Made by a program: the position numbers and the translations under genes. From a virus (Duplodnaviria > Caudoviricetes), in the IMG/VR virus record IMGVR_UViG_2974630753_000001, positions 5,661 through 69,660 of that record: DNA of 64,000 bases. One strand, given 5' to 3'. The notes under the pieces were generated by a model that did not search any database, was not told the DNA's origin, and was given only the letters and a program-made list of their open reading frames with translations. Positions 14,893 through 41,396 of the stretch are shown here, one piece after another. The stretch's first letter is position 1, and every line of letters starts with the position of its first letter.

Positions 14893-17800
14893 ATGACTGG
14901 CTTTTTTAGTCAAGCTGGCTTTGGTGGCCCGCCTGGTGGAGGTTCGGTTGAGTCGAAGGCTCTTCGCCAAATCGACTCTCGCACAAAGAGTTTCGCCAAT
15001 AAAGACTTTGTCAAAAACATTGCTTGGCTGAATCAGTCTGTTGACACACTGAGCGCTTATACCCAAAAGCTGCAAAAGGGTGTAGACGCTGCGAATCAGA
15101 ATGCTCTTGAGCAGATTTTGAGTTTCGCAGCTGACCTCTTTGTCCTCTTTGGTGGAGGCGAGCCGACCGGGATTGACCTTGGAGATTTGAAGTATGTAAT
15201 CCAAGGTATTGGTGCGCTTTTGGGCATCAATCCTGACACTCCGTTCCCCCTCAACCTTTTTGACGCAGCATGGAATCTCTTTGGGACTTACGTTGTCCCG
15301 CTTGAACAATTCACTGATGTTGTCTTCGATGCCATTACAGCTTGGGCTGAAGACTTCGGTCTATCTCCTGAACTTATCGAATCAATCCAAGACCTCAAAG
15401 ATGCCATCGAGGCTTTGGGCACAACGTTTTCCGATTTCTTTAACTCTCTTCACGATCTACTCTCTATCTTTGGGACCAACTTTCCAGTCCTAGGAGAGTT
15501 TTGGGATGCTTTGGTGGATTTGCTTACCGGAGTTGACATCTCAGGGTTGAAGCCTGTTATTTCGATGCTGGCCGATCTGGGCATACCGTTCATTCAAGCT
15601 CTTACAGCAATTGTCAACGCAGGCAATGCTTTTCTGACTCCATTCTCAAAGATCAGCGGGAGTCAGATTGCGACGCTTGGGGATAACGTAGTTCCTCCAG
15701 CTAGCAATAACACCACAATTTGGACTGTCGGCATTGACACTACAAATACGTGGGCTTATGACTCTACCCAAGAGGCCTTCACTACCCTTGGCACTGGAAC
15801 CTCAAAACAAGTTGATACTCAAGGGATTTCGCCTTGCAACCCTGGGGCTGAGTTTGTTACTGCGGCCAAGATTCGATGGTCTGGAATCCCAAGCTCTGCC
15901 AATGGCTTTGGGTATCAGATCATTTGGTATCTGAATCAAACAGAAGTCTCTCGCACTTCAGTAAATATTCCATCAGGACATGGGTCCAGTTCTGCTGGAA
16001 CATCTTTCGTTCAGATGGCGAATAATTCAATCATTGTGCCGCAGAACGTAAATGGCTTCAAGGTTGCAGGGTACGTTAATGGCACAATCACTTCAGGGCA
16101 AGTATGGATCAAAGACATCAGTGTTCGCATTGCTGGAAAAATCTCAAAGGGAATCATTGATGGTATTGAGGATTTTCTCACTGGCCTCTCTCCGATCAAT
16201 GCTCGAAATCTCTTTGGATTGTTGCCCGCCAACATCTTTAGCGCGATTCCCATCAGCGCTCTTGGGGACCACCAACCGAACCTATGGCCATTGGGTATGT
16301 TCCCGAATGCGAATGTCATTGATGGCAAGGGGATTTGGACGTTCGATGACACGGTTAAGAGAACTGAAGATGGTACCGGGTCTGTTCGCGTTGTGGCAGA
16401 TGGAACACCAAAAGCTTTGCGTGGCATTGAAACTCCGGTCATGCCAAAGCAAACAATCAGGCCTTCGGTTTTCGTACATTGGGACGAGTACCTTGGCTCT
16501 GGTGCCCCAATTCAGTTGCACCTAGCCCTTTACAAGCAAACCTCTGTCGATGAAAACCTAAACCCTGTCTATACCTTTCAGGGTTATCATGTGGTCGACT
16601 CTTTCACTCCCGGTTCATCTTCCGGTGGGTGGGTAGAGCTTTCGGGAGAGTACACAATTCCCGATACAGATGTTGACATGGTCAAAGGTCGTCTTTACAT
16701 CGGACCTCAAGCATTGGGTGGCACAATACATTTCGATGATGCTTCTGCTAGGCAGATTCGAAAGATGTTGCAAGAGTGGGTCGAAGGTCTCCCTGAAGTA
16801 ATTCAAGATACCTTTGCACGTTGGCAGTTGACGGTAGATACGATTGTTAATGCCATCAGGAACACCAACATCTTTGGTTACGAACTCGAAGATATAGCAA
16901 CAGCTTTGAGGAACATCCCGGCCCTAAACATTCTTGGCTTGCTTGGGCCAGAAACCATCGAAGAGACAATTCAAGAGTTGGTCAACGCAGCGGTCGGCGG
17001 GCTAGTTGGGCTTCCTGGCGTAGGTGCAAGTCTCGCAGACCTTTTCAACATGCTTCAACAAATTAGCTCTTGGGCTACTCAGGGACGTTGGTCTTGGGAG
17101 CTTTGGGGTAGGCGAGACAATACCCCGATTGACTCTGGTCTAATTCCTTCCAGCACTTCAAATTTCAAAATCAACTACATCAACACCACTCTTGCTTGCA
17201 CTCAGGCAAATTCTCTGATTGCAGCCATTAGGGTTGAGCAGTCGGCCCCGCTAGGTGTTGTCTCATGGCTTGGTTATGGTTCTGCTGGAATCACAGCGTT
17301 TTACGTCAACATCTGGAAGATCAATAAGACCACCGCAGCTCGCGAACGAGTTCATCACTCTGCGGATGTTAAATCAATCCTCCACCCTGGAAGTACCGAT
17401 GCTGATATCGGCTGGAACTTCTATTTCCTCCCAGAACCTTTGGAGCGCAACGCAGAAGATGAGCTTTTCTTTGAGTTGGTTCCTGTTGGTGGCACCCATT
17501 ACGTTCGCGGCGTCGATACTGAAGATACGATTCCAGACCATCCCTACGCATTGACGAAAGGCCTTGCGGCAACTAGGAATAACACCACAAACCCGGATAA
17601 TCCTCCTGCCAGCATTAGCCTGGCCTCTTGGACAACCTCTAGCAAGGTTCCATGGATTGAAACCGCAATTGATGTGGTCAGTGGAAATAACAACTATGAT
17701 CCGGTTATTCTTGAATTTGAAGACACAGTAACGATTCCGATTCCTTCATGGGTCAACTACGTTGACGTTATCCCATGTAGCGAAGGTGGAGACGGCGATA

Positions 17801-26241: not shown

Positions 26242-26714
26242 CGATGACAGAGAGCGTGGGTGTTCCGGTCAACATCATCCCCATTGGTCTCGATATGGAC
26301 CCTGAGACAGCAACATACGTAGGTGTTCTAGAGGGAACCATTGCAGCACTTGTGATTAACGAGGCGAAGTATCGCGCGTTCTTAGAGCTTCTGACCGGAG
26401 AGCCTTGGGAGGACACAAAGCTTGATATTGACGGAAATCAGTTGATGGCCATAGCAATTGAAGCGCTGATCAAACAGACTGGAATGGACAGGGTCAGGGC
26501 ACAAGTCTTGGTTGCTCAACGTTGGCAAAAGAGGAACCTTTCAACGGAAAGTGTTGTTCCTCAAGCTGTTCCGGTTGAGTCCTTGATGACAGAGAACAAC
26601 CGTCCACTGGTGGACAGTAAGCCGAAAGTTGATATGTCTCAACGGCTTAAGGCCTGGAAGAGTCGTCAAATGCAAGATGCCGCAACGATTTCCGAGAGCG
26701 AAGTTTCGCCTTAA
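26238..26714 (+). CDS. Hypothetical protein
   Basis: 158 aa ORF, last gene before the non-coding hinge. Confidence 0.65.
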   Translation: MTMTESVGVPVNIIPIGLDMDPETATYVGVLEGTIAALVINEAKYRAFLELLTGEPWEDTKLDIDGNQLMAIAIEALIKQTGMDRVRAQVLVAQRWQKRNLSTESVVPQAVPVESLMTENNRPLVDSKPKVDMSQRLKAWKSRQMQDAATISESEVSP

Positions 26715-26744
26715 AGTTTGCTGGTAAATGCCTGGTAGTTGGGT

Positions 26745-26799
26745 TGAAAGCCCTTGTGTCACAAGTGATTTAAAAACGCTTGTGGGATAAGGGCTTTCA
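26745..26799 (+). terminator. Long stem-loop ending the late operon
   Basis: ~21-bp stem TGAAAGCCCTTGTGTCACAAG / CTTGTGGGATAAGGGCTTTCA with one mismatch and G-U pairs. Confidence 0.6.
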
Positions 26800-26986
26800 T
26801 GTGTTAGAGAGGGGTCAAAAGTGCCAAGTTTTGGCGTTGCTATAACAAAATCTGTGATTTGCATCACGTTGCTAGATTTTGGGAAAATGTATCCTGACCA
26901 GGACTTTTTGCCTTTGCCGGCCTGTTGCTGACAAACTTAGCTAGTTTAACCATAGGTTTGCTACAGGCCATTTTTGCTTGACCGGG

Positions 26987-26995
26987 TGCTAGGAT
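26987..26995 (+). promoter_or_regulatory. Putative extended -10 promoter
   Basis: TGcTAGGAT matches TGnTAnnnT. Confidence 0.35.
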
Positions 26996-27001
26996 GGTCG
27001 A

Positions 27002-27420
27002 AGACCACCCCGGTTCGCCAGGGTGGTTGAGGCAACACGAGGCGCGCGGTAGGAATCGCGCTCCCGGCAACGGGGACCACGCCAGAGTGAAAAACGCCAG
27101 AGCACGCGGGTAGCAACCACGTGTGCAAAACAAATGCTTCTGTCGCAAAAGTGTTCTCCCGCAAGGGATTCCGGCGATTCGTCCCTGACGTCCAAACCAT
27201 ACGAATTGAAGCGTTTCATATAGGCCAGAACGAAATCCAAAGAGCAACAAGGGAATTCAACTAGCGATAACGGATCGTCGGGAGACGTACCGGAGTCATC
27301 CAACCGGATGCCCGCTAAAGCCCGACAGGGTGTGACCTGACAGAACCTTGTGAGTGTATGGAAGAAAACCGATTGTCGAGAGACAAACGGGACGGACGAA
27401 GGCTGAAACACGTTGTGGCA
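27002..27420 (+). ncRNA. Candidate structured non-coding RNA
   Basis: No credible ORF; several GNRA-capped hairpins (27063, 27157, 27276) and other stems. Confidence 0.4.
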
Positions 27421-27421
27421 G

Positions 27422-27450
27422 TTACGATTTAATGCCCTAAGAGATAGAAT
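27422..27450 (+). promoter_or_regulatory. SigA-type promoter
   Basis: TTACGA - 17 bp - TAGAAT. Confidence 0.6.
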
Positions 27451-27455
27451 CCCCC

Positions 27456-27551
27456 GAAGCTCAAGCGCGACGGAATGGCGCTATCCGCTCCAAATCCTCT
27501 GTGGCACAACGTTTTCCATCCATCCTCGGTGCAACTTCGGTTGCACCTTTT
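27456..27551 (+). ncRNA. Candidate CU-rich sRNA / leader ending in a UUCG terminator hairpin
   Basis: Contains TTTTCCATCCATCCTC (27512-27527), then GGTGCAAC-TTCG-GTTGCACC-TTTT. Confidence 0.5.
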
Positions 27552-27580
27552 GGGTGCTGGATCAAGAAAGAGAGTCAACA

Positions 27581-27811
27581 ATGGCCAGTAAGGTTTATGT
27601 CCCAATGGACAAAATCGTTACCTGCAAGCGTTGTGGCGCAAGCCCTTTGGCTTGGGTCAAATCCGAGAAAACCGGAAAGTTCTACTTAGCCAAGGTAGTT
27701 CGGCAAGAGGCACTTACCTATGACCCGCATAAATGTCATCCTGACATGGTTGAAAACATGAAGCGGGCCAAGGCAATTGACGAAGCAAACGGAGTTCAGT
27801 TCAGCTTCTAA
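27581..27811 (+). CDS. Small Zn-ribbon-like protein
   Basis: CKRC...HKCH; ATG after AGAAAGAGAG. Confidence 0.65.
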   Translation: MASKVYVPMDKIVTCKRCGASPLAWVKSEKTGKFYLAKVVRQEALTYDPHKCHPDMVENMKRAKAIDEANGVQFSF

Positions 27812-27898
27812 CGACAATGATCCAGCACCTTAATGGTGCAATTTGAAAGTGGTTGTGTCACAACCTGATCCCCACACTTTCACTAGGAGGATGAACGA

Positions 27899-28117
27899 AT
27901 GATGAAGAGCAAGCGCATTCAGGCGGGTCTTTACCGTGTCACCCTTGAAAATGGGGATGAGTACACGGTAAACCAAATCCGTACTGACGCAGCGGGTTAC
28001 GGCATCGAAAATCTCTGGTGGGTCTCACCTTCCGGAGAATTTACCCCGCCGTGCTACTTCGATCCTTTCTATACGAAAGGTGAAGCGCTCCACCAACTTT
28101 CGCTTCTGGAAGCCTGA
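27899..28117 (+). CDS. Hypothetical protein
   Basis: RBS AGGAGG, 72 aa. Confidence 0.7.
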   Translation: MMKSKRIQAGLYRVTLENGDEYTVNQIRTDAAGYGIENLWWVSPSGEFTPPCYFDPFYTKGEALHQLSLLEA

Positions 28118-28153
28118 ACGGTTCTACCGGGGTTCGATTCCCCGGCAGGTACG
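28112..28153 (+). ncRNA. tRNA-like element 1
   Basis: GCCTG aacggttcta CCGGGG TTCGATT CCCCGG CAGGT ACG. Confidence 0.8.
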
Positions 28154-28201
28154 AAAGTCCTTGATACACAAGGGCTTAACAATAGAAAAAGGGATGGAAA
28201 C

Positions 28202-28435
28202 ATGGAGATTACCTCAAATCGGAAGGCCATTGCGGAAGCTGCTGAAAAGGCAGGGTTCCAAAGGGTTTTCACTCCCCACTTTGATGTTTACATCAAGGGA
28301 GACAACGAAATTGAGATTTTCTACTTCTCTACCGGCAGACTCAAGGGAACATTTATTGAGTACATGCAAAAAGAGAAGATCACCAAGGTTGGCCCGATTC
28401 TCGATTACTTCCGAATCATGGCTAATCAGAGCTGA
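28202..28435 (+). CDS. Hypothetical protein
   Basis: GGGATGGAAA RBS, 77 aa. Confidence 0.7.
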   Translation: MEITSNRKAIAEAAEKAGFQRVFTPHFDVYIKGDNEIEIFYFSTGRLKGTFIEYMQKEKITKVGPILDYFRIMANQS

Positions 28436-28444
28436 ATCGAACTT

Positions 28445-28473
28445 GGCCACTCTCGGAAAGAGAGTGTGCCACT
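28445..28473 (+). other. Degenerate leader element (hairpin without T-loop)
   Basis: GGC CACTCTC ggaaa GAGAGTG t GCC AC, then a small hairpin and AGGATGGAA, in the same position as the other elements. Confidence 0.45.
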
Positions 28474-28515
28474 GGTCAATTCAGACCGACCCAAAACAAA
28501 ACAAAGGATGGAATC

Positions 28516-28785
28516 ATGGCTACGATCACGGGAAAGCTGCATTGCTGCGACGATTGCGCAATGGCAATCGCCAACGGCGACACTTCCGGTCTTGACTACT
28601 ATGGCGATGAATACCGCGCCAAGTGGGAAGCTGGTGTAGAAGCAAGCAAAGACGAACTGCCGGAAGGTTATCCGGTCATTGCTTGCCCCGAAGATTGCCC
28701 CGGTGACGATAAGCAGGAATTCATGTGTGACTATTGCAGTCGCAACGTCTACTCTCACAAGTTTGACCTTGCATTTCTGAACTAA
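28516..28785 (+). CDS. Cys-rich small protein
   Basis: HCCDDC...CPEDC...CDYC; AGGATGGAA RBS. Confidence 0.7.
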   Translation: MATITGKLHCCDDCAMAIANGDTSGLDYYGDEYRAKWEAGVEASKDELPEGYPVIACPEDCPGDDKQEFMCDYCSRNVYSHKFDLAFLN

Positions 28786-28794
28786 TCACCAACA

Positions 28795-28837
28795 GCCGCA
28801 ACGGTTTTCGTATGGGTTCGATTCCCATAGCGGCACG
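28795..28837 (+). ncRNA. tRNA-like element 2
   Basis: GCCGC aacggttttcg TATGGG TTCGATT CCCATA GCGGC ACG. Confidence 0.85.
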
Positions 28838-28887
28838 TCGTACCGATCAAAGTGGTTGGTACAAAACAAAATAAAAGGATGGAAACA

Positions 28888-29310
28888 ATGCAGATCACTG
28901 GAATCACCGTTAAGGACTTTCACTTGGCGATTGCTAAGGCAAACATCAAGTACGACAATAACCTAACGGCATTCATTGGAACTGAGTACAGCAATACTCG
29001 GTTTATTGGTCGAGTTGTCTTGCGAGAGACCGGCTTTCAAAAGTTCGGCAAAGGAACAGATTTGGCCAGTGGCCAACGTCGTTCATCGCAAGGCAGGCGC
29101 ATCAATGCTGTGTGCTGGCACGCATATCGTGACGTTTTGGTTGAGGTCTTCAATATCAACCCTGACGCAAAGGTTCGTACCAGGGAAGCGAAATACCTTG
29201 GTAAAGAATCCTTTTACGCAAACTTCCCCAACACAGCACATAGCAATCTAGGCAGTCTTTTTCAGCCTCTGTGCTATGCGGATGCTTGCGATTGCGACGG
29301 TGACCACTGA
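28888..29310 (+). CDS. Hypothetical protein
   Basis: AGGATGGAA RBS, ~140 aa. Confidence 0.7.
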   Translation: MQITGITVKDFHLAIAKANIKYDNNLTAFIGTEYSNTRFIGRVVLRETGFQKFGKGTDLASGQRRSSQGRRINAVCWHAYRDVLVEVFNINPDAKVRTREAKYLGKESFYANFPNTAHSNLGSLFQPLCYADACDCDGDH

Positions 29311-29320
29311 GTTACCGGTA

Positions 29321-29363
29321 GGGACAACGGTTTTCGGGGGAGTTCGATTCTCCCCGTCCCACG
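29321..29363 (+). ncRNA. tRNA-like element 3
   Basis: GGGAC aacggttttcg GGGGAG TTCGATT CTCCCC GTCCC ACG. Confidence 0.85.
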
Positions 29364-29411
29364 AAGTCAACGAATCCCGTTGGCTAACAATGAAATACAA
29401 AGGATGGAATC

Positions 29412-29696
29412 ATGGCTGACGTTACTTCTGTGCTCTTTTGCGGCATGGGTTGCGGCAAGGTTGAAGCTGAACACTTCAACGATTGTGAAGGTCGAACCCT
29501 CTACGGTCGTGAATGGAAGTGCAAGTGTGGCAAGACAATTGAGACTATCGGCGGTAGAGACGTTGATTGCGATTGTGGAGCTTGCTACAACGGCTTTGGC
29601 CAACGGTTGCGTAGCGACTGGCGCGGTAACCCTTCAAACTACGATGACGAAATCGGAGACCTTGAAGGCTACGAAATGCAGCACGCCAATGACTAA
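29412..29696 (+). CDS. Cys-rich Zn-finger-like protein
   Basis: CGMGC...CKCG...CDCGACYN. Confidence 0.7.
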   Translation: MADVTSVLFCGMGCGKVEAEHFNDCEGRTLYGREWKCKCGKTIETIGGRDVDCDCGACYNGFGQRLRSDWRGNPSNYDDEIGDLEGYEMQHAND

Positions 29697-29823
29697 GGTA
29701 CTCAAGCTAATTGAATGCCGCTACTGTCATCGGTTCGGGTTCAACGGATTTGAGCCTGACCACCTTTTAGGTGGCTATCGATGCAAAGCCCGCAAGGCTT
29801 GCGAGAAGCGCATAGGCAAGTAA
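29689..29823 (+). CDS. Small Cys-rich protein
   Basis: CRYC...CKARKAC; overlaps the previous stop codon. Confidence 0.5.
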   Translation: MTKVLKLIECRYCHRFGFNGFEPDHLLGGYRCKARKACEKRIGK

Positions 29824-29831
29824 GCCGAAAA

Positions 29832-29879
29832 GCCCTGAACTTAGCGACATTTCGGAGTGCGAGTCTCCAACAGGGCACG
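29832..29879 (+). ncRNA. tRNA-like element 4 (variant T-loop)
   Basis: GCCCTG aacttagcgacatttc GGAG TGCGAGT CTCC aa CAGGGC ACG. Confidence 0.65.
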
Positions 29880-29926
29880 AAAGTCATTGAAACACAATGG
29901 CTTACAAACAGAAAAGGATGGAAACC

Positions 29927-30175
29927 ATGTCTCATTACGCCTTTGAGGTTGCCTCAATGGATTTGTCAGTCGCTTTCGATTGCGAAGCTGACCGTGCAGA
30001 ACGTGAGGGATTTACTGGCGTTGCAGAGCGTCAGCGGGCCAACACTTTACATCTTCGTAATGCAGTCGATCATATGGTCAAGCATTGTCCTGAAGGTTAC
30101 CGTGTCAAAACGGAAATCGTTGTGTCGTTTGTCCCGAACGTCAACCCCGTCCTGAAAGACGAATATCGCAAATGA
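29927..30175 (+). CDS. Hypothetical protein
   Basis: AGGATGGAA RBS. Confidence 0.7.
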   Translation: MSHYAFEVASMDLSVAFDCEADRAEREGFTGVAERQRANTLHLRNAVDHMVKHCPEGYRVKTEIVVSFVPNVNPVLKDEYRK

Positions 30176-30184
30176 ATCATGGTA

Positions 30185-30229
30185 GCCCTGAACGGTTTTC
30201 AGCAAGGTTCGATTCCTTGCCAGGGCACG
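30185..30229 (+). ncRNA. tRNA-like element 5
   Basis: GCCCTG aacggttttca GCAAGG TTCGATT CCTTGC CAGGGC ACG. Confidence 0.85.
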
Positions 30230-30274
30230 AGGTCAATGAAATACGTTGGCCAACAACAGAAAAGGATGGAAACT

Positions 30275-30454
30275 ATGGACAAAATCATTGAGCTTTCGGA
30301 AAATGAAGCTCGTCAGTTATTGACAGAGCTGAAGATGGCCGAATCTCAGGGGAGCTTGACCAAGCTCTCTGTGTCCATCAAGAGTGATCATGTGGTTTTC
30401 AAGATAAATGAATTCACATGGTCTCCCCCTATGGGTAAGCCTTTGGAAGGCTAA
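30275..30454 (+). CDS. Hypothetical protein
   Basis: AGGATGGAA RBS, 59 aa. Confidence 0.65.
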   Translation: MDKIIELSENEARQLLTELKMAESQGSLTKLSVSIKSDHVVFKINEFTWSPPMGKPLEG

Positions 30455-30462
30455 CCCAAATA

Positions 30463-30505
30463 GCGCCAACGGTTTTCGTAGAGGTTCGATTCCTCTAGGC
30501 GCACG
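30463..30505 (+). ncRNA. tRNA-like element 6
   Basis: GCGCC aacggttttcg TAGAGG TTCGATT CCTCTA GGCGC ACG. Confidence 0.85.
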
Positions 30506-30552
30506 AAACGCAGTGAAATCCATTGCGTTACAACAGAAGAGGATGGAATTGA

Positions 30553-30738
30553 ATGTTCACTCTTGAAATACGTACTACCGGAGACGCTTTCGTTGGTTTC
30601 ACAGAGCAAGAGGTTGCCAAACTTCTTCGTGACGTGGCTCATCAAGTGGAGTCTTATGCGGCATCGAACAAAACCCATTCGATCATTGACATCAACGGAA
30701 ATCGCTGTGGCTCTTGGAAGTTGACCAACGATGAATGA
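30553..30738 (+). CDS. Hypothetical protein
   Basis: GAGGATGGAA RBS, 61 aa. Confidence 0.7.
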   Translation: MFTLEIRTTGDAFVGFTEQEVAKLLRDVAHQVESYAASNKTHSIIDINGNRCGSWKLTNDE

Positions 30739-30940
30739 AGCAGAACGAATCAAGGCAAAGACCGAAGAGCTAAAGCCACTGTGGCCCAAGGGAACTCGAG
30801 TTTCGTGGGACCACTTCGGCATGAAGCGATTTGGTGAAGTTGTAGACATTGATGGTCATTTCATCAGGGTTAAGCCAAGCGATGAATGGCCAGAGCCAAT
30901 TTGGCTTGACCATCAGAGACTCGAAAAGGTCAGTGCATGA
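30731..30940 (+). CDS. Small SH3-like hypothetical protein
   Basis: KGTRVSW...GEVVDID pattern; overlaps the previous gene. Confidence 0.55.
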   Translation: MNEAERIKAKTEELKPLWPKGTRVSWDHFGMKRFGEVVDIDGHFIRVKPSDEWPEPIWLDHQRLEKVSA

Positions 30941-31197
30941 ACAACATTCAATTAGAAATGAATCAAGTCAGACAGGCCAGAAAGGCAATTGCAGACATTG
31001 ACAAATGTTTGCTTGAAGCTCAAAGGCCTGGTGCCACTTTGGTTCTCAGAGACAGGGCTGTTAAAAGAGCAAGGTACACACTTGTTTGCCTAGAAGACAT
31101 GGTTGATGGTTTTGCCAAGGGCAAGCCAAGACCGTGGTCCTGGTACGTCCCGATGATTTCTGAAGAGTTTGACCCGCCGGTCTCTGCCAAGACTTGA
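30937..31197 (+). CDS. Hypothetical protein
   Basis: ATGA overlap with the previous gene. Confidence 0.6.
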   Translation: MNNIQLEMNQVRQARKAIADIDKCLLEAQRPGATLVLRDRAVKRARYTLVCLEDMVDGFAKGKPRPWSWYVPMISEEFDPPVSAKT

Positions 31198-31206
31198 AAG
31201 GTGGCC

Positions 31207-31273
31207 GCCCACAATGGTTTTAGCGCGCAAGAGGGTAGCGCACTACAGAGGTTCGATTCCTCTGGTGGGCACG
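31207..31273 (+). ncRNA. tRNA-like element 7 (with inserted hairpin)
   Basis: GCCCAC aatggttt [tagcgcgc aagagggta gcgcacta] CAGAGG TTCGATT CCTCTG GTGGGC ACG. Confidence 0.85.
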
Positions 31274-31317
31274 TGAACCGTTGATACCCAACGGAAAACA
31301 GAAAAGAGGATGGAAAC

Positions 31318-31725
31318 ATGACTGCACCAATCGTTTTGAACGTTCTTGGCTATTTCTCGCCTAGCCCGAAGTATGCCAACTCTGTTGCTATGGTCCTAGA
31401 CCTAACCGACAGTTGGGACGATGATTTTGGTGATGTAGATACCTACGGCACTCAGGTGATGGTGTTCTATCGGTTCACCATTCAAGAGGCCTATGCTGCT
31501 GTGAATGCGTACATCCAAAACACCACAACGGGATTCAATTCCTTTGTGCCTTGGCGTGACGCTTCTCAGCTCATTGACATCATCACTGAAGGTCAGAATT
31601 GGATCGTGACAACAGACAGTGATGGTTTCGTAAATGCCGAGTGCTTCCCGAATCTTGAAGAGGCAGAACGGATTTACCTTGATCGTCGCACTGACTTTCA
31701 AGTTTGGGCAAAGGAAAGGCCATAG
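31318..31725 (+). CDS. Hypothetical protein
   Basis: GAGGATGGAA RBS, 135 aa. Confidence 0.7.
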   Translation: MTAPIVLNVLGYFSPSPKYANSVAMVLDLTDSWDDDFGDVDTYGTQVMVFYRFTIQEAYAAVNAYIQNTTTGFNSFVPWRDASQLIDIITEGQNWIVTTDSDGFVNAECFPNLEEAERIYLDRRTDFQVWAKERP

Positions 31726-31729
31726 CTCA

Positions 31730-31966
31730 ATGAAACCACTGCACGTTATCGTGTCTCTGTTTCATTACACAAAGGGGACCATCACAGACATCAATGGCAA
31801 TATCATTACCTTCATTGATGTTCGGGAGATGAGGGGTTCTGCCTTTGTTGATGGGCCAAACGTAGTTGAGTTCGGCCCAAAACTAAGTCCTTTGATAGCA
31901 ACGCCTTTCGGCTGTTATCAGATGGCGTTCTGGTGTCACGATTGCAGCAAAATCCACGAAGAGTGA
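31730..31966 (+). CDS. Hypothetical protein
   Basis: ATG after GGAAAGG; C-terminal CHDC. Confidence 0.55.
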   Translation: MKPLHVIVSLFHYTKGTITDINGNIITFIDVREMRGSAFVDGPNVVEFGPKLSPLIATPFGCYQMAFWCHDCSKIHEE

Positions 31967-31975
31967 TTCGTGGTG

Positions 31976-32020
31976 GCCCCGTTTGGAATTAACCGTGGTT
32001 CGACTCCACGGCGGGGCACG
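31976..32020 (+). ncRNA. tRNA-like element 8
   Basis: GCCCCG tttggaattaa CCGTGG TTCGACT CCACGG CGGGGC ACG. Confidence 0.85.
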
Positions 32021-32059
32021 TAGCGACGAAACCCGTTGCAACAGAAAGGGGATGGAGAG

Positions 32060-32272
32060 ATGATGGAGACAGGACAGCAGTCAACCTACGTTCGAATTCT
32101 GAAGGTGGGGCAAGTTTTCTGGGACGAAGAGCTTTTGTGGGAAGTTACTCGAGAACCTGTGATAGAAAACGATTCTCGAGTTTTGATCTACATTCGTCCA
32201 TATCCACATCAAGAGGGTCAAAGGTCACGTGCCTTTTACTATGACCATGATCGACGAGTGCGATTGGCCTAA
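32060..32272 (+). CDS. Hypothetical protein
   Basis: GGGGATGGAG RBS. Confidence 0.65.
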   Translation: MMETGQQSTYVRILKVGQVFWDEELLWEVTREPVIENDSRVLIYIRPYPHQEGQRSRAFYYDHDRRVRLA

Positions 32273-32308
32273 GTGAAAATGCCGATAAGACAACGTCTAT
32301 ATCGGTTA

Positions 32309-32409
32309 GCTCTGAATGGTTTGAATCTCGTTAAGAGACAGCAACTTTCAGGTAAGTTCCGTAACCGCGTGCGGAGATTCAGTGAGTTCGATTCTCACAC
32401 AGAGCACCA
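32309..32409 (+). ncRNA. tRNA-like element 9 (longest; ends ACCA)
   Basis: GCTCTG aatggttt GAATCTC..44 nt..GAGATTC a GTGAG TTCGATT CTCAC a CAGAGC ACCA. Confidence 0.8.
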
Positions 32410-32472
32410 TAGGTGAATGTCACCTAGCGACAGTGAATCTCACTGTCAGGCAACAGAAATGAGGATGGAAAA

Positions 32473-33606
32473 ATGAGTCGAGAAACCCGTGAATGGCTGA
32501 ACGAATTCATCTTGGTTGGCAATTGCAAGGAACGTCCAATGGCCTGGCATTATGATCGAGAGCTTCAGAAGTCAAAGGGTTTGGCAGACAACCACTTTGA
32601 AGACCCGATTCCATATCAGGTTGTGGTTGATCGTCTGTTCTCATGGGAACCGAAATCTGTGCCCAAGGCCAATTTGGTTCCCTGTGCCAAGCGTGACGCG
32701 AATTTCTTTGGCCCGCAAGGCCAACCGTACAAAGTCATGCCTACCGGCACTTGGAATGATGACTATGTTTACGAAGGTGAGCAAGGAATCATTCGATCAG
32801 ATACCAAGGCACACATGGCAACTCATGGATCAGGGTACAAAATCCACGATTACAAACAGTGGCTCTTGAGGCTACAGTCAAACGTCTTGGGTGATTCCCT
32901 TACGATTCTGGGAGCTGGCCTACTTCGCAACGCTTTGCAAGCGTATGTTCAGGTGGCCATGCCTAGGCCTGAGACAGATGACAAAACCGGATTGAAGTTC
33001 ATGCCGTATATCACAGCATCTACTTCTCTAGATGGCTCTCTACCAACAACTTTCAGTGCTCAATCGCTTCTGATCGTGTGTGACAACACTCGAGAAATGG
33101 CCTTGAGGCAAGCTGAACGTTCGGGAACCATTTACAAGGCAAAGCACACGTCAAAGTCCTTGGATCAAAACAGGATCAAAGACGTTCGTGAAGCTCTTGG
33201 AATCGTCCATAAGCAAGCGGATGATTTCGTGGCTGAAATGCAAGAGCTGGCAAGCATTTCCGTGACCCGCCGACAGTGGGTCAAGGTTCTGGATATCATC
33301 TTGCCCTTGCCTGATCCGAAAGACCCGAAGACCAGCAAGCGTGCAATGACGATTGCTGAAAACAAAAGGGAGGTAATGAATCACACCTATTGGCGAGATC
33401 CGATGATGAACAACATGCAAGGTTCTGCCTTGGGAGTTGTCCAAGCGGTAAACACCTACGCGAATCATTATTCGCAGATAAAGGGAAATCGCTTGGAGCG
33501 CAACATGGAAAAGATGGTCAAGGGTGACTTTGGGGATATCGACCGCAAAACGGTCTTGGCTCTCTCAGAGGTCCTGAACCGTCCAGAGTTGGTTACTGTC
33601 AGCTAA
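32473..33606 (+). CDS. DUF932-like phage/plasmid protein
   Basis: Motif TSLDGS...LLIVCDNT...KHT; 377 aa. Confidence 0.8.
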   Translation: MSRETREWLNEFILVGNCKERPMAWHYDRELQKSKGLADNHFEDPIPYQVVVDRLFSWEPKSVPKANLVPCAKRDANFFGPQGQPYKVMPTGTWNDDYVYEGEQGIIRSDTKAHMATHGSGYKIHDYKQWLLRLQSNVLGDSLTILGAGLLRNALQAYVQVAMPRPETDDKTGLKFMPYITASTSLDGSLPTTFSAQSLLIVCDNTREMALRQAERSGTIYKAKHTSKSLDQNRIKDVREALGIVHKQADDFVAEMQELASISVTRRQWVKVLDIILPLPDPKDPKTSKRAMTIAENKREVMNHTYWRDPMMNNMQGSALGVVQAVNTYANHYSQIKGNRLERNMEKMVKGDFGDIDRKTVLALSEVLNRPELVTVS

Positions 33607-33634
33607 ATTCGAACGAAAAGAAAGAGGGGACAAA

Positions 33635-33769
33635 ATGAGACCTGGGGCATACAGCGCACCTGGCCTTGGCGGTGCAGTGAACGGTCAAATCAAAAGCATT
33701 CTGCGACGCTGGAAAAAGCAGGCAGAGAGCAACCGCAAGTGGTATGAAGCGGGCAAGCGAGTGAACTAA
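33635..33769 (+). CDS. Small hypothetical protein
   Basis: 44 aa, RBS AGAGGGG; below the ORF-track cutoff. Confidence 0.5.
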   Translation: MRPGAYSAPGLGGAVNGQIKSILRRWKKQAESNRKWYEAGKRVN

Positions 33770-33778
33770 GCAGTGGCA

Positions 33779-33828
33779 GGGTAGCCGATGGTTCGGCATT
33801 CGTCAGGTTCGATTCCTGACTACCCACG
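33779..33828 (+). ncRNA. tRNA-like element 10
   Basis: GGGTA gccga tggt tcggc attc GTCAGG TTCGATT CCTGAC TACCC ACG. Confidence 0.8.
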
Positions 33829-33868
33829 AAGGGCAAAGACATTGCCCTACAACAGAAATGAGGATGGA

Positions 33869-34264
33869 ATGATGAGAACACGGATCAAAGAGATTCTGAT
33901 CGCTTTTGTCATCACCATGTCAATTGTGTTCAGCCTCTTTGCAATATCTCAAATGGCAAGAGCCTCAGCGGATTACAACATGGGCTGTGAACGTGTTCGT
34001 TGGGGATTTCTTTGGTCGGGATACAGAACTATCTGTGATGGGCCAAAGAGACCAGACGGAAGTTGGGACCGTACCCGTAGGGAATGGACCCCCGCTGGTT
34101 ATGTTCCTGTCTCTTGCTATGGGTATTCGTTTATCTCATGCTCTGGAGGGTACTATCGGCAGGAATCAACGCAACGACTGGAAACGTATCCGGTAACTGA
34201 CGCAACGGTTTTGCCAAATGAACCGGCTTGGTTACCTCCTGGTACAGCTAGGATTCTGCCATGA
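33869..34264 (+). CDS. Secreted CDGP-type protein
   Basis: Signal peptide plus RTICDGPKRPDGSWDRTR...ETYPV, as in mycobacterial and mycobacteriophage CDGP proteins. Confidence 0.7.
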   Translation: MMRTRIKEILIAFVITMSIVFSLFAISQMARASADYNMGCERVRWGFLWSGYRTICDGPKRPDGSWDRTRREWTPAGYVPVSCYGYSFISCSGGYYRQESTQRLETYPVTDATVLPNEPAWLPPGTARILP

Positions 34265-34282
34265 CTTGGTGAAAGCATAAAG

Positions 34283-34325
34283 GCCGCAACGGTTTTCGTA
34301 TGGGTTCGATTCCCATAGCGGCACG
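34283..34325 (+). ncRNA. tRNA-like element 11 (identical to element 2)
   Basis: 43-nt exact copy of 28795-28837. Confidence 0.85.
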
Positions 34326-34366
34326 AGTACCAAAAACCTTGGTACAGAACAGAAATGAGGATGGAA

Positions 34367-34897
34367 ATGAGATTCGTTGACTTGAGCACTGGGGAACCGA
34401 AAGAGGTTGAGGTTTTTACTCTTCGGGAGGTCAGCTCAAAAATGTCTGTCTCTGGTCAGCATTACTACAGTCGGATAAAAACACTTACCGGCTGGATCAA
34501 TGACCCTAAAATCTCAACCCCTAAGCCAGCATTCACCTTTCAAGAGGTTGACTATTGGAAGCCAGAACAGGTCGAAGACTGGAATGCCCTATGGGAGAAG
34601 CAGATTGAGCTTGAAGCCGAACGTCAGTGGAAAAGGCTTGAAGAGGAAAAGATTTCAAAGGCCTCTCTGATCAATCACCTTTTGGACGAAGCCAGAGATC
34701 TTGAGCGTCGAAACTCTCGGTGCTACAGCAAAAATCGTGGAAACTCCATGAGCGATGGCCGTAGACGCGCTGTTGCTTTTGAAGGGGTGGAGGCTTTTGT
34801 GCGAATGTTGTTGGGAGGGTCGAGTTTTCCTGTTGACAAGGAAAAAGAGCTGAACGCTTTGTTTCGCAAAGCAAAAGACCATGTGAACATGCAGTGA
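34367..34897 (+). CDS. Hypothetical protein, possible N-terminal HTH
   Basis: GAGGATGGAA RBS; FTLREVSSKMSVS pattern. Confidence 0.65.
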   Translation: MRFVDLSTGEPKEVEVFTLREVSSKMSVSGQHYYSRIKTLTGWINDPKISTPKPAFTFQEVDYWKPEQVEDWNALWEKQIELEAERQWKRLEEEKISKASLINHLLDEARDLERRNSRCYSKNRGNSMSDGRRRAVAFEGVEAFVRMLLGGSSFPVDKEKELNALFRKAKDHVNMQ

Positions 34898-34905
34898 TCA
34901 TGGTA

Positions 34906-34949
34906 GACCGGAATGGTTGTAGGTAGGTTCGATTCCTACCCCGGTCACG
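34906..34949 (+). ncRNA. tRNA-like element 12
   Basis: GACCGG aatggttgta GGTAGG TTCGATT CCTACC CCGGTC ACG. Confidence 0.85.
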
Positions 34950-34990
34950 CTAATCTGTTGATTCCCAACGGATTTGAGAGGATGGAAATA

Positions 34991-35158
34991 ATGCAAACAA
35001 TCATCGAACCTGACACGTATGCCGCAAAGGAACAGATTCAAGCCATCGCCGAAGAGAAAGGGATGGCATCAACTCATATCCACGGCACACACGTCATTGG
35101 TTACCACGACAGCAAAAAGTGTGGTGGCCACGAGATTGCCAGGTGGTATTCATCATGA
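34991..35158 (+). CDS. Small hypothetical protein
   Basis: GAGGATGGAA RBS, 55 aa. Confidence 0.6.
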   Translation: MQTIIEPDTYAAKEQIQAIAEEKGMASTHIHGTHVIGYHDSKKCGGHEIARWYSS

Positions 35159-35367
35159 AAACCTGTTTTGTAGTCATCGTTGCAATGACGTTGTCTATCT
35201 TAGGGATTCACACTGCATACGCTGAACCATGTGGTTACGTCAGTAACCTTCCCTGGTCTCCGTGTGCTGAAATCTCGCCATTCCAAACGTATCCCGGTTA
35301 CTACGACCCACAGGGGAAAACCCCTGGCGCTATGGGTCCATGGGGTTACGTTCCGAAGGTAGGGTAA
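35155..35367 (+). CDS. Small secreted protein
   Basis: Signal-peptide-like N-terminus ending AYA; ATGA overlap. Confidence 0.6.
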   Translation: MKTCFVVIVAMTLSILGIHTAYAEPCGYVSNLPWSPCAEISPFQTYPGYYDPQGKTPGAMGPWGYVPKVG

Positions 35368-35372
35368 AAGCC

Positions 35373-35441
35373 GCCCGCGTTGGTACTGATGCAAGCATGG
35401 GGATGTTGCGTCACGGAAGTTCAATTCTTCCGGCGGGCACG
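35373..35441 (+). ncRNA. tRNA-like element 13 (with inserted hairpin)
   Basis: GCCCGC gttggtac [tgatgcaagcat gggg atgttgcgtca] CGGAAG TTCAATT CTTCCG GCGGGC ACG. Confidence 0.85.
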
Positions 35442-35485
35442 AAACCTGTTGACTCACAACGGGTTACAACGAAATGAGGGTGGAA

Positions 35486-35701
35486 ATGACTGTCCGAGTG
35501 AGAAATTCAATGGAGGTTGTTGCAACAGATGACCGAACGGGAACTGTTGTGGCCAGGGCTAATCGAGGTGATTTCGGAAAGGATTGGTTCATCGGTCGAA
35601 TCATATATGGCAAGATGACCCAAATCGCAACTGTCTCTGGTCATGCTCCTGAGGTTATGCAGAGAAAATTGGTGCTGGCCATACTGAAAGAGGTCTCCTA
35701 A
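35486..35701 (+). CDS. Hypothetical protein
   Basis: GAGGGTGGAA RBS variant. Confidence 0.65.
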   Translation: MTVRVRNSMEVVATDDRTGTVVARANRGDFGKDWFIGRIIYGKMTQIATVSGHAPEVMQRKLVLAILKEVS

Positions 35702-36039
35702 TGACCAAGAGCCATTTACGAAAGCTGTTGATTTCCATGGCTTTTGGATGCATCATTGCTGCGGTATTGATTCAGTCACCAAAGGCAAAGGCAGACAGTG
35801 AATATTGGGGTATCTATGCGGTCAATTACGGAGATGCCCTGATCTGCGATCACTTCACGAGACATGGAGTCAACCGAGTTAGCTTTACCGCTCTCGGAAA
35901 TTTCCTAATGAACTCAGAGGGTTATTCCTCTGAAGAGGCGGGGAAGATAGTGACCCTTTCAACTCAAATGTATTGCCCTGAACACATTCCAGCTATAAAC
36001 CAAGTGATCAGGCAGATACTCAAGGTGACATTGGCTTGA
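35701..36039 (+). CDS. DUF732-like secreted protein
   Basis: Signal peptide; ICDHF...YSSEEAGKIV...MYCPEH. Confidence 0.65.
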   Translation: MTKSHLRKLLISMAFGCIIAAVLIQSPKAKADSEYWGIYAVNYGDALICDHFTRHGVNRVSFTALGNFLMNSEGYSSEEAGKIVTLSTQMYCPEHIPAINQVIRQILKVTLA

Positions 36040-36055
36040 GTTGAAAAGGTCAAGG

Positions 36056-36105
36056 GCCAGACCCGATTCGGCGGGGCATCGAGATTCAAGCTCTCGACTG
36101 GCACG
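36056..36105 (+). ncRNA. tRNA-like element 14
   Basis: GCCAG a cccg attcgg cggg gca TCGAGA TTCAAGC TCTCGA CTGGC ACG. Confidence 0.75.
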
Positions 36106-36146
36106 AAACCCATTGTTGCAGATGGGTTTTAAGAAAGGATGGAAAA

Positions 36147-36311
36147 ATGAAGGTCAGAATTGACTTTACCGTGAAGGTTGACCCTGATCGGTGGAGGGCT
36201 ACAAAAGGTCTACCGGAAGATACGGATTCTCAAGTGAGACAAGCTGTTAAGGCTTGGGTTCAGAAAGAGACATCCGAAAGTCTATCTCGTGAAGGGATTC
36301 TCATCCAGTGA
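36147..36311 (+). CDS. Small hypothetical protein
   Basis: 54 aa after AAGGATGGAAAA; below the ORF-track cutoff. Confidence 0.6.
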   Translation: MKVRIDFTVKVDPDRWRATKGLPEDTDSQVRQAVKAWVQKETSESLSREGILIQ

Positions 36312-36574
36312 CCAAAAAAGCCAAATCAATTCAAGCTGAACGTGACACGAGTACGTCAAAACTTCAGCAGAAGACCCTACGCAATGCCTACCGTCATGGA
36401 ATGACCTGGGATGATGATGAAGTTTCGTTGCTAGTCAACGGGATTCAAAAAGATCAAACCACTTTTGAAATGGCGATGGCCCTTGGACGTTCGTACTACT
36501 CAGTTCAAGGGGCAAGGGCACATGTTCGTTTCGCCATGGACCACATCAACGTAATTCGAAAGGCTGCAAAGTGA
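36308..36574 (+). CDS. Small HTH-like DNA-binding protein
   Basis: WDDDEVSLL...FEMAMALGRSYYSVQ helical HTH pattern. Confidence 0.55.
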   Translation: MTKKAKSIQAERDTSTSKLQQKTLRNAYRHGMTWDDDEVSLLVNGIQKDQTTFEMAMALGRSYYSVQGARAHVRFAMDHINVIRKAAK

Positions 36575-36973
36575 ACGAAGAGGAACGAAAGCTAATCGCT
36601 TTCATGACCTGGCTAGAAGATGTCTTTCCTCACAGAGTGAGGTTTAGAGACGAATCTGCCAAACTTCAACTTGCACAAGGCTTTTTGAATCGGGAAGAGG
36701 GACAGAGTGATTCAAACATTGCGTAATCTGTTTCGTGCCAAGAGATTTCATAAGCTGCAAAAACGTGCTAACGAAGAGCAGCTGTGTAAGTTTCACGAAA
36801 CACTGGCCAACGAAATCAGGGAAGAAAGGAGACGCCAAGTTAAATGACGCGATTGGTCCGTCTTCTGAATCAATTTGTGACGCAATGAGATTCAGGAGAC
36901 GGACCTTTATGCGTTCTCTGGTGCCCTTACCCGAACTTCCCCGCTGAGTTAGCCTGGCGAGCCGTCAGGCCTG

Positions 36974-36982
36974 TGCTAGGGT
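36974..36982 (+). promoter_or_regulatory. Putative extended -10 promoter preceded by an inverted repeat
   Basis: TGcTAGGGT, preceded by GCCTGGCG / CGTCAGGC. Confidence 0.4.
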
Positions 36983-37012
36983 GCCTCTAGGGCACAATGA
37001 AGGGTCGTCAAA

Positions 37013-37225
37013 GTGCTTGAAACAGTACAGATTTCGCTGATGTCGGATCAGCGAGTCTCCATCACTCAATCTGACTCCAAAAACCTTGTTATAAGCCAAG
37101 TTTCAATCCCTCGAAAAGAATGGGAAGAGCTTATGGCCAAGGTTGTATGGCAAACCAAGAGCGCTAGCCATACAGAGCTCATGCAGTTAATCACTGCATT
37201 AAGTGTTCTTTTGGAAGATAGCTAG
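37013..37225 (+). CDS. Hypothetical protein
   Basis: GTG start after GAAGGG. Confidence 0.5.
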   Translation: MLETVQISLMSDQRVSITQSDSKNLVISQVSIPRKEWEELMAKVVWQTKSASHTELMQLITALSVLLEDS

Positions 37226-37262
37226 AAGTTGCTATTTCCTTGAATAGCAACAAGATTGAGGT

Positions 37263-37271
37263 TGTTAGGGT
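37263..37271 (+). promoter_or_regulatory. Putative extended -10 promoter preceded by an inverted repeat
   Basis: TGtTAGGGT, preceded by perfect GTTGCTATT / AATAGCAAC (37228-37251). Confidence 0.45.
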
Positions 37272-37334
37272 ACCTCACAAGGGGTATCCTTGAGGTTGCA
37301 ACGAAGACCGACCGGTCTTGGATTGGAGATTGAA

Positions 37335-38135: not shown

Positions 38136-38191
38136 GACCGTATTGGCTAGGTGGTAAGTACACATAGAGACAGAAACCTAGCCAATCCCCT

Positions 38192-38263
38192 TGCCCCGTA
38201 GTGTAATTGGCAGCACGAGTGGTTTTGGTCCACTTAGTTCAGGTTCGAGTCCTGGTGGGGCAG
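38192..38263 (+). tRNA. trnQ: tRNA-Gln (anticodon TTG), CCA not encoded
   Basis: Full cloverleaf: TGCCCCG/TGGGGCA acceptor, GTGT/GCAC D arm, AGTGG-TTTTGGT-CCACT anticodon arm, TCAGG-TTCGAGT-CCTGG T arm. Confidence 0.92.
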
Positions 38264-38921: not shown

Positions 38922-38924
38922 CCC

Positions 38925-41007: not shown

Positions 41008-41011
41008 CGCA

Positions 41012-41305: not shown

Positions 41306-41306
41306 C

Positions 41307-41334: not shown

Positions 41335-41396
41335 GGACAGTGCAAGGGTCGAAGAGACCGAGCTAGTAAATCGAAATCACAAGGGAGACAAAGCAA

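Follow-up and report, generated by a model that had tools for sequence, protein, structure and literature searches.

The 130 nt at 27422-27551, which the initial annotation had taken for a small RNA gene with its own promoter and terminator, is identified by comparison with related phages as belonging to a structured RNA that had not been recognised before, measures at least 330 nt, and has its core at 27221-27551; the flagged nucleotides form its 3′ module. This RNA represents a new family, recognised in three mycobacteriophage lineages by its conserved position and compensatory base changes, and the unit in the present phage also takes in 26987-27420; it may reach approximately 550 nt if its start lies near 27003. 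About 15 early genes carry a ribosome-binding-site (RBS) tag that is mirrored by the invariant CCAUCCUC tract of this RNA, and the tract probably controls the translation of these genes, an anti-RBS function that is plausible and well supported by the comparison between phages. All coordinates refer to the window, i.e., the whole 64,000-nt stretch of phage DNA that was analyzed, and the features are compiled in Table 1.

Locus and Distribution of the RNA

The phage represented by the window, whose host is Mycobacterium smegmatis, is approximately 85% identical to the phages Cuke (Cukevirus) and MrMiyagi (Fowlmouthvirus), and all the genes in the window are carried on the + strand. An 870-bp gap (26715-27581) has the lysis cassette on one side and a run of small early genes on the other, with the flagged 130 nt situated at its 3′ end; the same gap is present in Cuke and MrMiyagi. 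The structured RNA family was found in the Cuke-like phages, in Cluster R (Papyrus and Send513), and in Indlulamithi, and it occupies the same syntenic position after lysin B in all three lineages. A cross-cluster blastn match of 86% covered positions 27237-27363, and the Indlulamithi tract was found by a short-query search in a 1.5-kb gap located after lysin B and NrdH. The covariance model built on the 5′ core (model R1) scored 161 bits in the window, 150 bits in Papyrus, and 47.7 bits (E 3e-12) in Indlulamithi, where the match shows compensatory swaps of whole helices. The window bears, in the gap after lysin B, the complete set of elements by which this post-lysis-cassette RNA is recognised, namely the R1 core, the 3′ domain, the invariant UUCCAUCCAUCCUCGG tract, and the hairpin.

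Regarding the search for more distant relatives, model R1 detected no homologue in the post-lysis gap of Predator (Cluster H). Exact-pattern scans of viral and metagenome contigs returned only Cuke-like or near-identical Cluster R contigs, and the scan of genome contigs gave chance matches only (Thioclava, Limisphaerales). An 18-nt match in the Ralstonia phage RSJ2, which sits within an RNA polymerase gene, was set aside as chance, and blastn with one Papyrus cassette as the query recovered Cluster R only. At the gathering score, the sole Rfam 15 match in the window was a tRNA-Gln at 38192. With E values up to 10, nothing credible was obtained over 26600-27700 among riboswitches, T-box, RNase P, tmRNA, 6S/Ms1, group I/II introns, and 6C; resemblances to RNase P CR-I/CR-V, the T-box, and rsmX, which had no Rfam support, were dropped.

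Table 1. Features of the structured RNA, its proposed targets, and the second anti-motif site (window coordinates).
Feature	Start	End	Strand	Remarks
Candidate extended -10 TGCTAGGAT	26987	26995	+	Identical in the window, Cuke, and MrMiyagi
Clade-specific structured 5′ region	27000	27217	+	Flanks conserved among Cuke-like phages
Conserved 5′ domain	27221	27404	+	Multi-helix junction; covariance-model core 27234-27366
Window-specific hairpin CCGAUUGUC-GAGA-GACAAACGG	27364	27390	+	27-nt insertion relative to Cuke and MrMiyagi; hairpin in the MFE fold
3′ domain	27405	27516	+	Closed by helix 8 (27410-27420 with 27502-27512); contains helix 9
TTACGA-17 nt-TAGAAT hexamers	27422	27450	+	Inside helices 8 and 9; promoter not supported
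Anti-RBS tract UUCCAUCCAUCCUC	27514	27527	+	Predicted single-stranded; the 27512-27527 of the initial annotation adds a 5′ UU in the window
Terminal hairpin 14, GGUGCAAC-UUCG-GUUGCACC and UUUU	27528	27551	+	Three lineages, three hairpin sequences, same place
Helix 15, GGUGCUGGAUCA (27553-27564) with UGAUCCAGCACC (27818-27829)	27553	27829	+	12 perfect pairs
Conserved cassette-0 leader	27830	27901	+	Kept in Cuke and MrMiyagi
15 cassette RBSs (proposed targets)	28186	36150	+	12 AGGATGG and 3 one-mismatch variants
Second anti-motif, long hairpin after the acidic-tail protein gene	41885	41955	+	Apical loop UUUUCCUCCAUCCU

Comparative Evidence for the RNA Structure

The alignment of the window with Cuke, MrMiyagi, Papyrus, and Send513 revealed conservation extending from approximately 27221 to beyond 27551. 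When RNAalifold and pair counts were applied to these five sequences, 80 pairs were predicted, with 94.4% of their alignment cells paired versus 31-42% in slid controls, and compensatory changes affected 14 pairs, a count reached by none of 500 shuffles. For example, three of the five pairs of helix 9 (27426-27430 with 27492-27496) covary, the two strands reading GAUUU/AAAUC in the window, GGUUU/AAACC in Cuke, ACUUU/AAAGU in MrMiyagi, and ACCU/AGGU in Papyrus. Four pairs of hairpin 14 covary across the lineages. The G-U pairs, together with an A-to-G change in Weiss13 that produces a U.G pair, fit the + strand only. Additionally, junction sequences within the RNA are strongly conserved. The MFE fold of the whole 334 nt was not unusually stable (z -0.79), and therefore the evidence for the structure is comparative between phages; the 3′ domain alone had a z-score of -2.89, and hairpin 14 in the window reached -13.9 kcal/mol (z -3.7) and was listed as terminator-like.

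At the 5′ side, transcription of the large RNA would start at the candidate extended -10 given in Table 1, with comparable elements, TGgTACTCT in Papyrus and TGgTATAGT in Indlulamithi, located 240-460 nt upstream of the core. The segment at approximately 27030-27135 is swapped for a different GC-rich sequence in Cuke and MrMiyagi. At the 3′ side, the tail following hairpin 14 consists of UUUU or UUUA (3-4 U) only in the Cuke-like phages, and reads AUUA in Cluster R and AACA in Indlulamithi. Counterparts of helix 15 with different sequences are situated directly 3′ of hairpin 14 in Cuke, MrMiyagi, and Papyrus; in the window, this helix encloses a 76-aa gene (27582-27811). In the cassette-0 leader that follows, a palindrome, GTTGTGTCACAAC, occupies 27852-27864, and GAGGAUG at 27887-27893, the first RBS complementary to the tract, precedes a start codon at 27899. 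Since helix 15 and cassette-0 are conserved after the hairpin, transcription would, in at least some cases, continue past the hairpin, which is consistent with the initial suggestion that read-through supplies the operon.

The Anti-RBS Tract and Its Predicted Targets

Every element described in the initial annotation was found in the sequence, from TTACGA (27422-27427), the 17-nt spacer, and TAGAAT (27445-27450) to the tract, the hairpin, and the TTTT. The letters at 27512-27527 are TTTTCCATCCATCCTC, within which TTTTCCATCC exactly complements GGATGGAAAA and TCCATCCTC exactly complements GAGGATGGA, and they are followed by the 8-bp UUCG hairpin GGTGCAAC-TTCG-GTTGCACC (27528-27547) and TTTT (27548-27551). 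The sequence TTCCATCCATCCTCGG was identical in six of six sequences from the three lineages and unpaired in the consensus, and the UUCCAUCCAUCCUCGG block, invariant in the three lineages, was the longest such block of the RNA. In predicted folds of MrMiyagi, Papyrus, Send513, and Indlulamithi, the unpaired probability of the tract was 0.7-1.0, and no internal Watson-Crick complement of the tract of at least 5 nt was present in the Papyrus or Indlulamithi RNAs.

Three candidate partners of the tract were considered and rejected. Closure in cis by the upstream AGGAUGG at 26991 is restricted to the Cuke-like phages and absent from Cluster R and Indlulamithi. The pairing with GGGAUGGUAUGGAAG in the Cuke MFE fold involves a Cuke-specific segment whose UAUGG is already engaged in the covarying helix 1. 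The 13-nt complement AGGATGGATGGAA at 5737, within the ORF at 5538-6320, is not conserved in Cuke and was attributed to chance.

The motif proposed as the target proved to be real, with 20 AGGATGG copies in the window versus 9.65 expected, a number that none of 100 shuffles reached. Twelve + strand copies fall within 28505-36136, a few bases ahead of a start codon in every case. The cassette RBSs are located 4-8 nt before their start codons, each behind a tRNA-like minihelix and a hairpin. The cassettes carry 12 AGGATGG copies in the window, 13 in Papyrus, 16 in Cuke (30090-38958), and approximately 11 in Indlulamithi (36106-44750), so that start-associated (G)AGGAUGG RBSs mark the tRNA-like early cassettes in all three RNA-bearing lineages; the late genes are without the motif, and those of Cuke have ordinary mixed Shine-Dalgarno sequences. 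As the initial annotation had proposed for every cassette RBS, the tract is predicted to form 8-10 bp with the 15 cassette RBSs at -13 to -16 kcal/mol, compared with late-gene means of -5.9 kcal/mol in Cuke and -6.9 kcal/mol in Papyrus. The fold suggested at the outset as an alternative, in which the tract pairs only with the RBS of the gene at 27581, does not apply, that RBS not being complementary to it. Two further ideas about the cassette RBSs were discarded: they are not weak for the host anti-SD, with predicted energies of -8 to -11 kcal/mol equal to those of late genes, and a mini-ORF starting from the AUG inside AGGAUGG was inconsistent between cassettes.

Based on the statistics of the 64-kb window alone, the anti-motif is not beyond chance: five minus-strand matches to GAGGATGGAAAA with up to two mismatches occur in the window, approximately the chance number, and CCATCCT has three copies on its + strand. 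The significance of the tract comes from its conservation in related phages, not from window statistics. On the + strand, CCATCCTC has only two or three copies per genome, two of which keep their place across the window, Cuke, Papyrus, and Indlulamithi: one copy is the tract itself, and the other lies in a hairpin loop that follows the gene of the acidic-tail protein. Considering that the tract is invariant, predicted to be single-stranded, and found together with AGGAUGG RBSs in the three lineages, the comparison supports the anti-RBS idea of the initial annotation, the tract being read as single-stranded and under selection for complementarity to the RBS motif of the cassettes; the co-occurrence of motif and RNA may come partly from common descent, the lineages being related.

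A Second Anti-Motif Site and Its Counterpart in Cluster H

The second conserved copy of CCATCCTC, at 41920-41927, is displayed in the loop of a hairpin with a fold of -38 kcal/mol (z -4.7). Syntenic hairpins with CCAUCCUC were located in Cuke (45063), Papyrus (50217), and Indlulamithi (48404), which, with the window, makes four of the four fully read genomes. The Cluster H phages have the same tRNA-like cassettes with a different start motif, (A/G)GAAACGGAC(A/G), their RBS motif being GGAAACGGACA. In Predator, the 42 kb that were read contain just one exact complement, TGTCCGTTTCC (0.01 expected by chance), which lies in the apical loop of the syntenic hairpin following the equivalent gene; the corresponding loop of Konstantine, on a different stem, carries CCGTCCGTTTCC. 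Motif and anti-motif thus change together between clusters, which is strong natural evidence of RNA pairing. This covariation evidence is direct for the second site and only indirect for the tract at 27514-27527, since the RBS motif does not vary among the phages with the large RNA. Furthermore, Cluster H, with no R1 match in the post-lysis gap, manages without the large RNA, and therefore the tract is not required for the cassette system as such.

These observations also bear on the view, unlikely in our judgment, that the tract is conserved for another reason, as a site for a phage or host protein or for the ribosome, or as a tertiary contact, that its complementarity has no function, and that the role of the RNA lies elsewhere, e.g., in antitermination, mRNA stabilisation, or an action on the tRNA-like elements. 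Pyrimidine-rich single strands are common protein-binding sites. Such a view would be in agreement with the strongly conserved junction sequences, with an RNA far larger than a carrier of a seed, and with the cassettes of Cluster H, which lack the large RNA. It is also favored by the chance level of complementarity in the window, but the exact complementarity of two independently conserved 8-mers, with odds of ~1.5e-5 per register, argues against it, as do the unpaired display of the 8-mer at a second conserved site and the Cluster H counterpart that tracks a different RBS motif.

Proposed Mechanism and Action in Cis or in Trans

In the model that we prefer, the RNA would be the + strand leader of the early operon, with transcription coming from farther upstream and the TTACGA/TAGAAT hexamers playing no part as its promoter. 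A single-stranded tract of 11-14 nt, including the letters CCAUCCAUCC, would be presented between the 3′ domain and the terminal hairpin and would base-pair with the start-associated (G)AGGAUGG(A), the RBS of about 15 early genes. Pairing would occlude these RBSs, so that translation would be lowered or timed as a set. The tract would act in cis on the first downstream RBS (27887-27893), and the remaining RBSs could be reached in trans once the RNA had been processed or if some transcripts terminated at the hairpin; the second copy of the anti-motif, in the hairpin loop at 41920, would belong to the same layer of control. We infer transcription, the ends of the RNA, pairing in vivo, and repression as the direction of the effect. 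Taken as a whole, i.e., a leader RNA of at least 330 nt whose exposed tract pairs with approximately 15 early RBSs and lowers or times their translation, the model has in our estimation about an even chance of being correct. If the RNA existed only as the operon leader, it would be equimolar with each target, which is unfavorable for silencing 15 sites in trans. Additionally, the RNA probably does something more that the model does not explain, because its structured body of about 300 nt far exceeds the need of a seed-presenting sRNA.

Pairing in cis with the next RBS (27887-27893) is predicted beside the proposed action in trans. When the leader was folded with the first gene, the tract paired with the first downstream RBS in three of four phages, with predicted probabilities of ~0.5 in the window (27521-27527 with 27887-27893), ~0.6 in MrMiyagi, and 0.87 in Papyrus. 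This RBS is the sole partner common to all lineages within approximately 1.3 kb, and the conserved helix 15 and cassette-0 connect the tract to it. Such features would suit a leader switch operating exclusively in cis, in the manner of a riboswitch or attenuator, in which the tract masks no RBS other than the first, or else makes read-through of hairpin 14 dependent on folding, the large structured body serves as a sensor domain, and the remaining cassette RBSs share the motif merely as copies of one another. The first gene, however, varies among the phages, so that no specific gene would be regulated, and the first RBS of Indlulamithi, GAGGAUAGG, matches just 6 nt; both points make it less likely that the tract acts purely in cis on a single gene. 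The second site, moreover, covaries with the genome-wide RBS motif, arguing for many targets, and no Rfam riboswitch, T-box, or leader model matches the RNA. Altogether, we consider a switch confined to cis to be quite unlikely.

The Proposed Promoter Hexamers and the Extent of the Transcript

The TTACGA and TAGAAT hexamers that the initial annotation had read as a promoter are present, but their role as a promoter found no support. Both lie inside covarying helices. The pair was not listed by the promoter scan (8/12 by hand count, with a threshold of 9), and the -10 hexamer, TAGAAT with 17-nt spacing in the window and Cuke, reads TAGAGA in MrMiyagi and CAGGCA in Papyrus and is lost from MrMiyagi, Cluster R, and Indlulamithi. 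The differences among phages at the proposed -35 are matched on the partner strand of helix 9, at 27495-27496, and are therefore compensated changes of an RNA. Helix 8 begins upstream of the proposed promoter; therefore, the RNA must begin before 27410.

An independent sRNA of ~95 nt (~27456-27551), with the TTACGA-17-TAGAAT promoter at its head and the UUCG hairpin as its terminator, is for these reasons very unlikely. Its proposed end, the hairpin with TTTT, is listed as terminator-like, and the hairpin is conserved with covariation; two of the three lineages lack the U-run, and the conserved helix 15 shows that structure continues past the hairpin. The 96-nt stretch folds by itself with the tract free (z -2.2). 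A start at 27456 would leave helices 8 and 9 without the first of their two strands. The -10 shared by the window and Cuke is a further point in favor of such an sRNA.

Least probable of all, and barely credible, is the absence of any RNA element, the region being instead a DNA-level signal (an origin, an operator array, or a packaging or recombination site), for which the palindrome TTGTGTCACAA flanking it at 26753 and 27852 could speak, or a small protein gene on the minus strand (Cuke gp34), annotated in Cuke as a 49-aa reverse ORF over the 3′ domain. Some of the compensatory changes give G-U pairs, which hold for the + strand alone; the annotations of MrMiyagi, Papyrus, Send513, and Indlulamithi place no ORF there, and the putative reverse ORF is ruled out by single-base indels that separate close relatives within it.

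Comparison with Known Systems and Implications

The logic of the large RNA appears closest, by analogy, to that of the C4 RNA of P1/P7. The C4 antisense RNA was reportedly described by Citron and Schuster in 1990 and by Hartmann et al. in 1995. C4 (immI operon, RF01695) comes from the transcript of its own target, masks a downstream RBS, and is released by RNase P (PMC5320573). The present RNA would resemble it as a phage RNA at the head of an operon with exposed segments complementary to a downstream RBS, and the operon here is full of tRNA-like elements, which could be RNase P sites. In contrast, C4 is ~77 nt long with three stem-loops and one target region (icd/ant), whereas the RNA described here has at least 330 nt, presents its seed as the linker that joins a domain-closing helix to a hairpin, and has about 15 RBSs as its proposed targets. 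No covariance match to C4 (RF01695) was obtained over 26600-27700, either at the gathering score or with E up to 10.

Within mycobacteria, the unpaired C-rich RNA B11/6C pairs with the RBSs of many mRNAs and represses them without Hfq (PMC10470900). The parallel would lie in unpaired C-rich segments directed at purine-rich RBSs in the same host genus; however, B11/6C is host-encoded, measures ~90 nt, targets G tracts through the cytosine runs of its hairpin loops, and does not belong to an operon leader, and the Rfam 6C model gave no match in the window searches. In phage T4, early mRNAs are shut down at their RBSs, RegA being a translational repressor and RegB a GGAG-specific endonuclease. 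These are likewise phage devices acting on many early RBSs together, although they are proteins and not antisense RNA.

Another system of interest is formed by the start-associated sequences of Cluster K (SAS/ESAS), for which Pope et al. (2011) left open whether a phage RNA or a protein is the reader (PMC3203893), and whose function was still untested in 2025 (PMC12699233). Both systems have a conserved extended motif that overlaps the RBS a few bases from the start, is confined to non-structural genes of the right arm, and often has a paired element upstream; AGGATGG lies 4-8 nt before the starts of cassette genes only, within the 3-8 nt expected of an SAS-type motif. They differ in the consensus, which is GGGATAGGAGCCC in Cluster K and GAGGATGG, (G)AGGATGG(A), here, and in the upstream element, which here is the tRNA-like minihelix with its hairpin. 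A further difference is that conserved RNA structures hold the anti-motif here, which at the second site shows covariation with the motif from cluster to cluster. The complement of a SAS-type motif is thereby located in two conserved RNA structures, at one of which it changes with the motif between clusters, and the open question on the SAS reader becomes a simple bench test in M. smegmatis.

A broader and tentative reading, to which we attach rather low probability, is an "address code" made of RNA only, in which early genes carry a start-associated tag and two structured phage RNAs, the large one heading the early operon and a hairpin closing the early region, display the exact anti-tag (AGGAUGG with CCAUCCU, GGAAACGGACA with UGUCCGUUUCC), co-evolving between clusters, with the body of the head RNA as a sensor or a catalytic or processing domain. 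If this were true, each lineage would possess a private switch of its early programme, co-infecting relatives could be silenced by it as well, the head RNA would cooperate through its large body with the tRNA-like punctuation, and the long-sought reader of SAS-type motifs would be at hand. Apart from this reading, the new family corrects annotations that place ORFs on the RNA and links the RNA to the tRNA-like punctuation system of the early genes, and the matched motif/anti-motif pairs could provide orthogonal translation switches for mycobacterial genetics. In the K1 phages, the SAS has one copy in reverse orientation, which in Anaya is intergenic, at 59870.

Cassette architecture and a hairpin with the second anti-motif

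One cassette architecture is common to at least four phage lineages (the window, Papyrus, Indlulamithi, Predator and Konstantine). Each cassette opens with an acceptor/T-arm minihelix, whose loop is GGTTCGANTCC and whose tail is 'AC'; a variable hairpin and the start motif follow in that order. A natural hypothesis is that RNase P/Z punctuates the early mRNA. A long hairpin located 3' of the acidic-tail protein gene presents, in each of these genomes and in Cuke, a loop complementary to the lineage's own start-associated RBS motif. The window, Cuke, Papyrus and Indlulamithi carry CCAUCCUC in this loop, and Predator and Konstantine, both of Cluster H, carry (U/C)GUCCGUUUCC; the stems vary between lineages, while the loop follows the RBS motif.

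Coordinates of the features in the window and related phages
Feature	Genome	Position
Palindrome CTTGTGTCACAAG	window	26753-26765
Palindrome GTTGTGTCACAAC	window	27852-27864
Long-range helix (12 bp, perfect)	window	27553-27564 with 27818-27829
Cassette region	window	28112-36146
Cassette region	Papyrus	38.2-44.6 kb
Cassette region	Indlulamithi	35.0-42.4 kb
Cassette region	Predator	36.8-42 kb
Cassette region	Konstantine	38.1-45 kb
Anti-motif hairpin	window	41885-41955
Anti-motif hairpin	Cuke	45063
Anti-motif hairpin	Papyrus	50217
Anti-motif hairpin	Indlulamithi	48404
Anti-motif hairpin	Predator	48722
Anti-motif hairpin	Konstantine	16843-16855 (numbering of stretch read)
Post-lysis-gap ORF gp34	Cuke	29611-29760 (minus strand)
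Post-lysis-gap ORFs gp42, gp43	Papyrus	
Post-lysis-gap ORF gp42	Send513	

Surroundings of the structured RNA

The long-range helix wholly encloses the Cys-rich 76-aa gene (27582-27811) in the window, where Papyrus has a mere 15-nt loop. In MrMiyagi the position is taken by a ~80-nt insert that includes a T-loop-like GGTTCAAATCC; the gene's homologue in that phage, gp37, is instead located after cassette-0, the conserved leader. The two palindromes are near-identical, share a TTGAAAG... context and lie ~1.1 kb apart, one on each side of the RNA region; a DNA-binding regulator might use them as operator sites.

In Cuke, Papyrus and Send513, the post-lysis gap has annotated small ORFs that look spurious: Cuke gp34 overlaps the structured RNA itself, and gp42 of both Papyrus and Send513 is immediately upstream of its conserved core. 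For Papyrus gp43, an AGGATGG RBS at 37529 suggests a start at ~37541 rather than 37502. Predator lacks the structured RNA in its gap (34640-35400; 6641-7400 of the stretch read), which is filled by short palindromic GC-rich repeats of the GCGCGC and TGCGCA types, in dozens of copies.

Complements elsewhere

In Anaya (JF704106), the sole reverse-oriented copy of the Cluster K start-associated sequence (SAS), GGCCTCCTATCCC at 59870 (39871 of the stretch read), has one mismatch to the exact SAS complement. It is intergenic, within the 385-bp gp96-gp97 gap, and on the gene strand, which suggests an anti-SAS RNA, a counterpart of the window's proposed anti-RBS RNA. In the window, 13 nt at 5737-5749 (AGGATGGATGGAA) are also perfectly complementary to the tract, the invariant anti-RBS stretch; this match is not kept in Cuke and lies within a tail assembly chaperone homologue (ORF 5538-6320).
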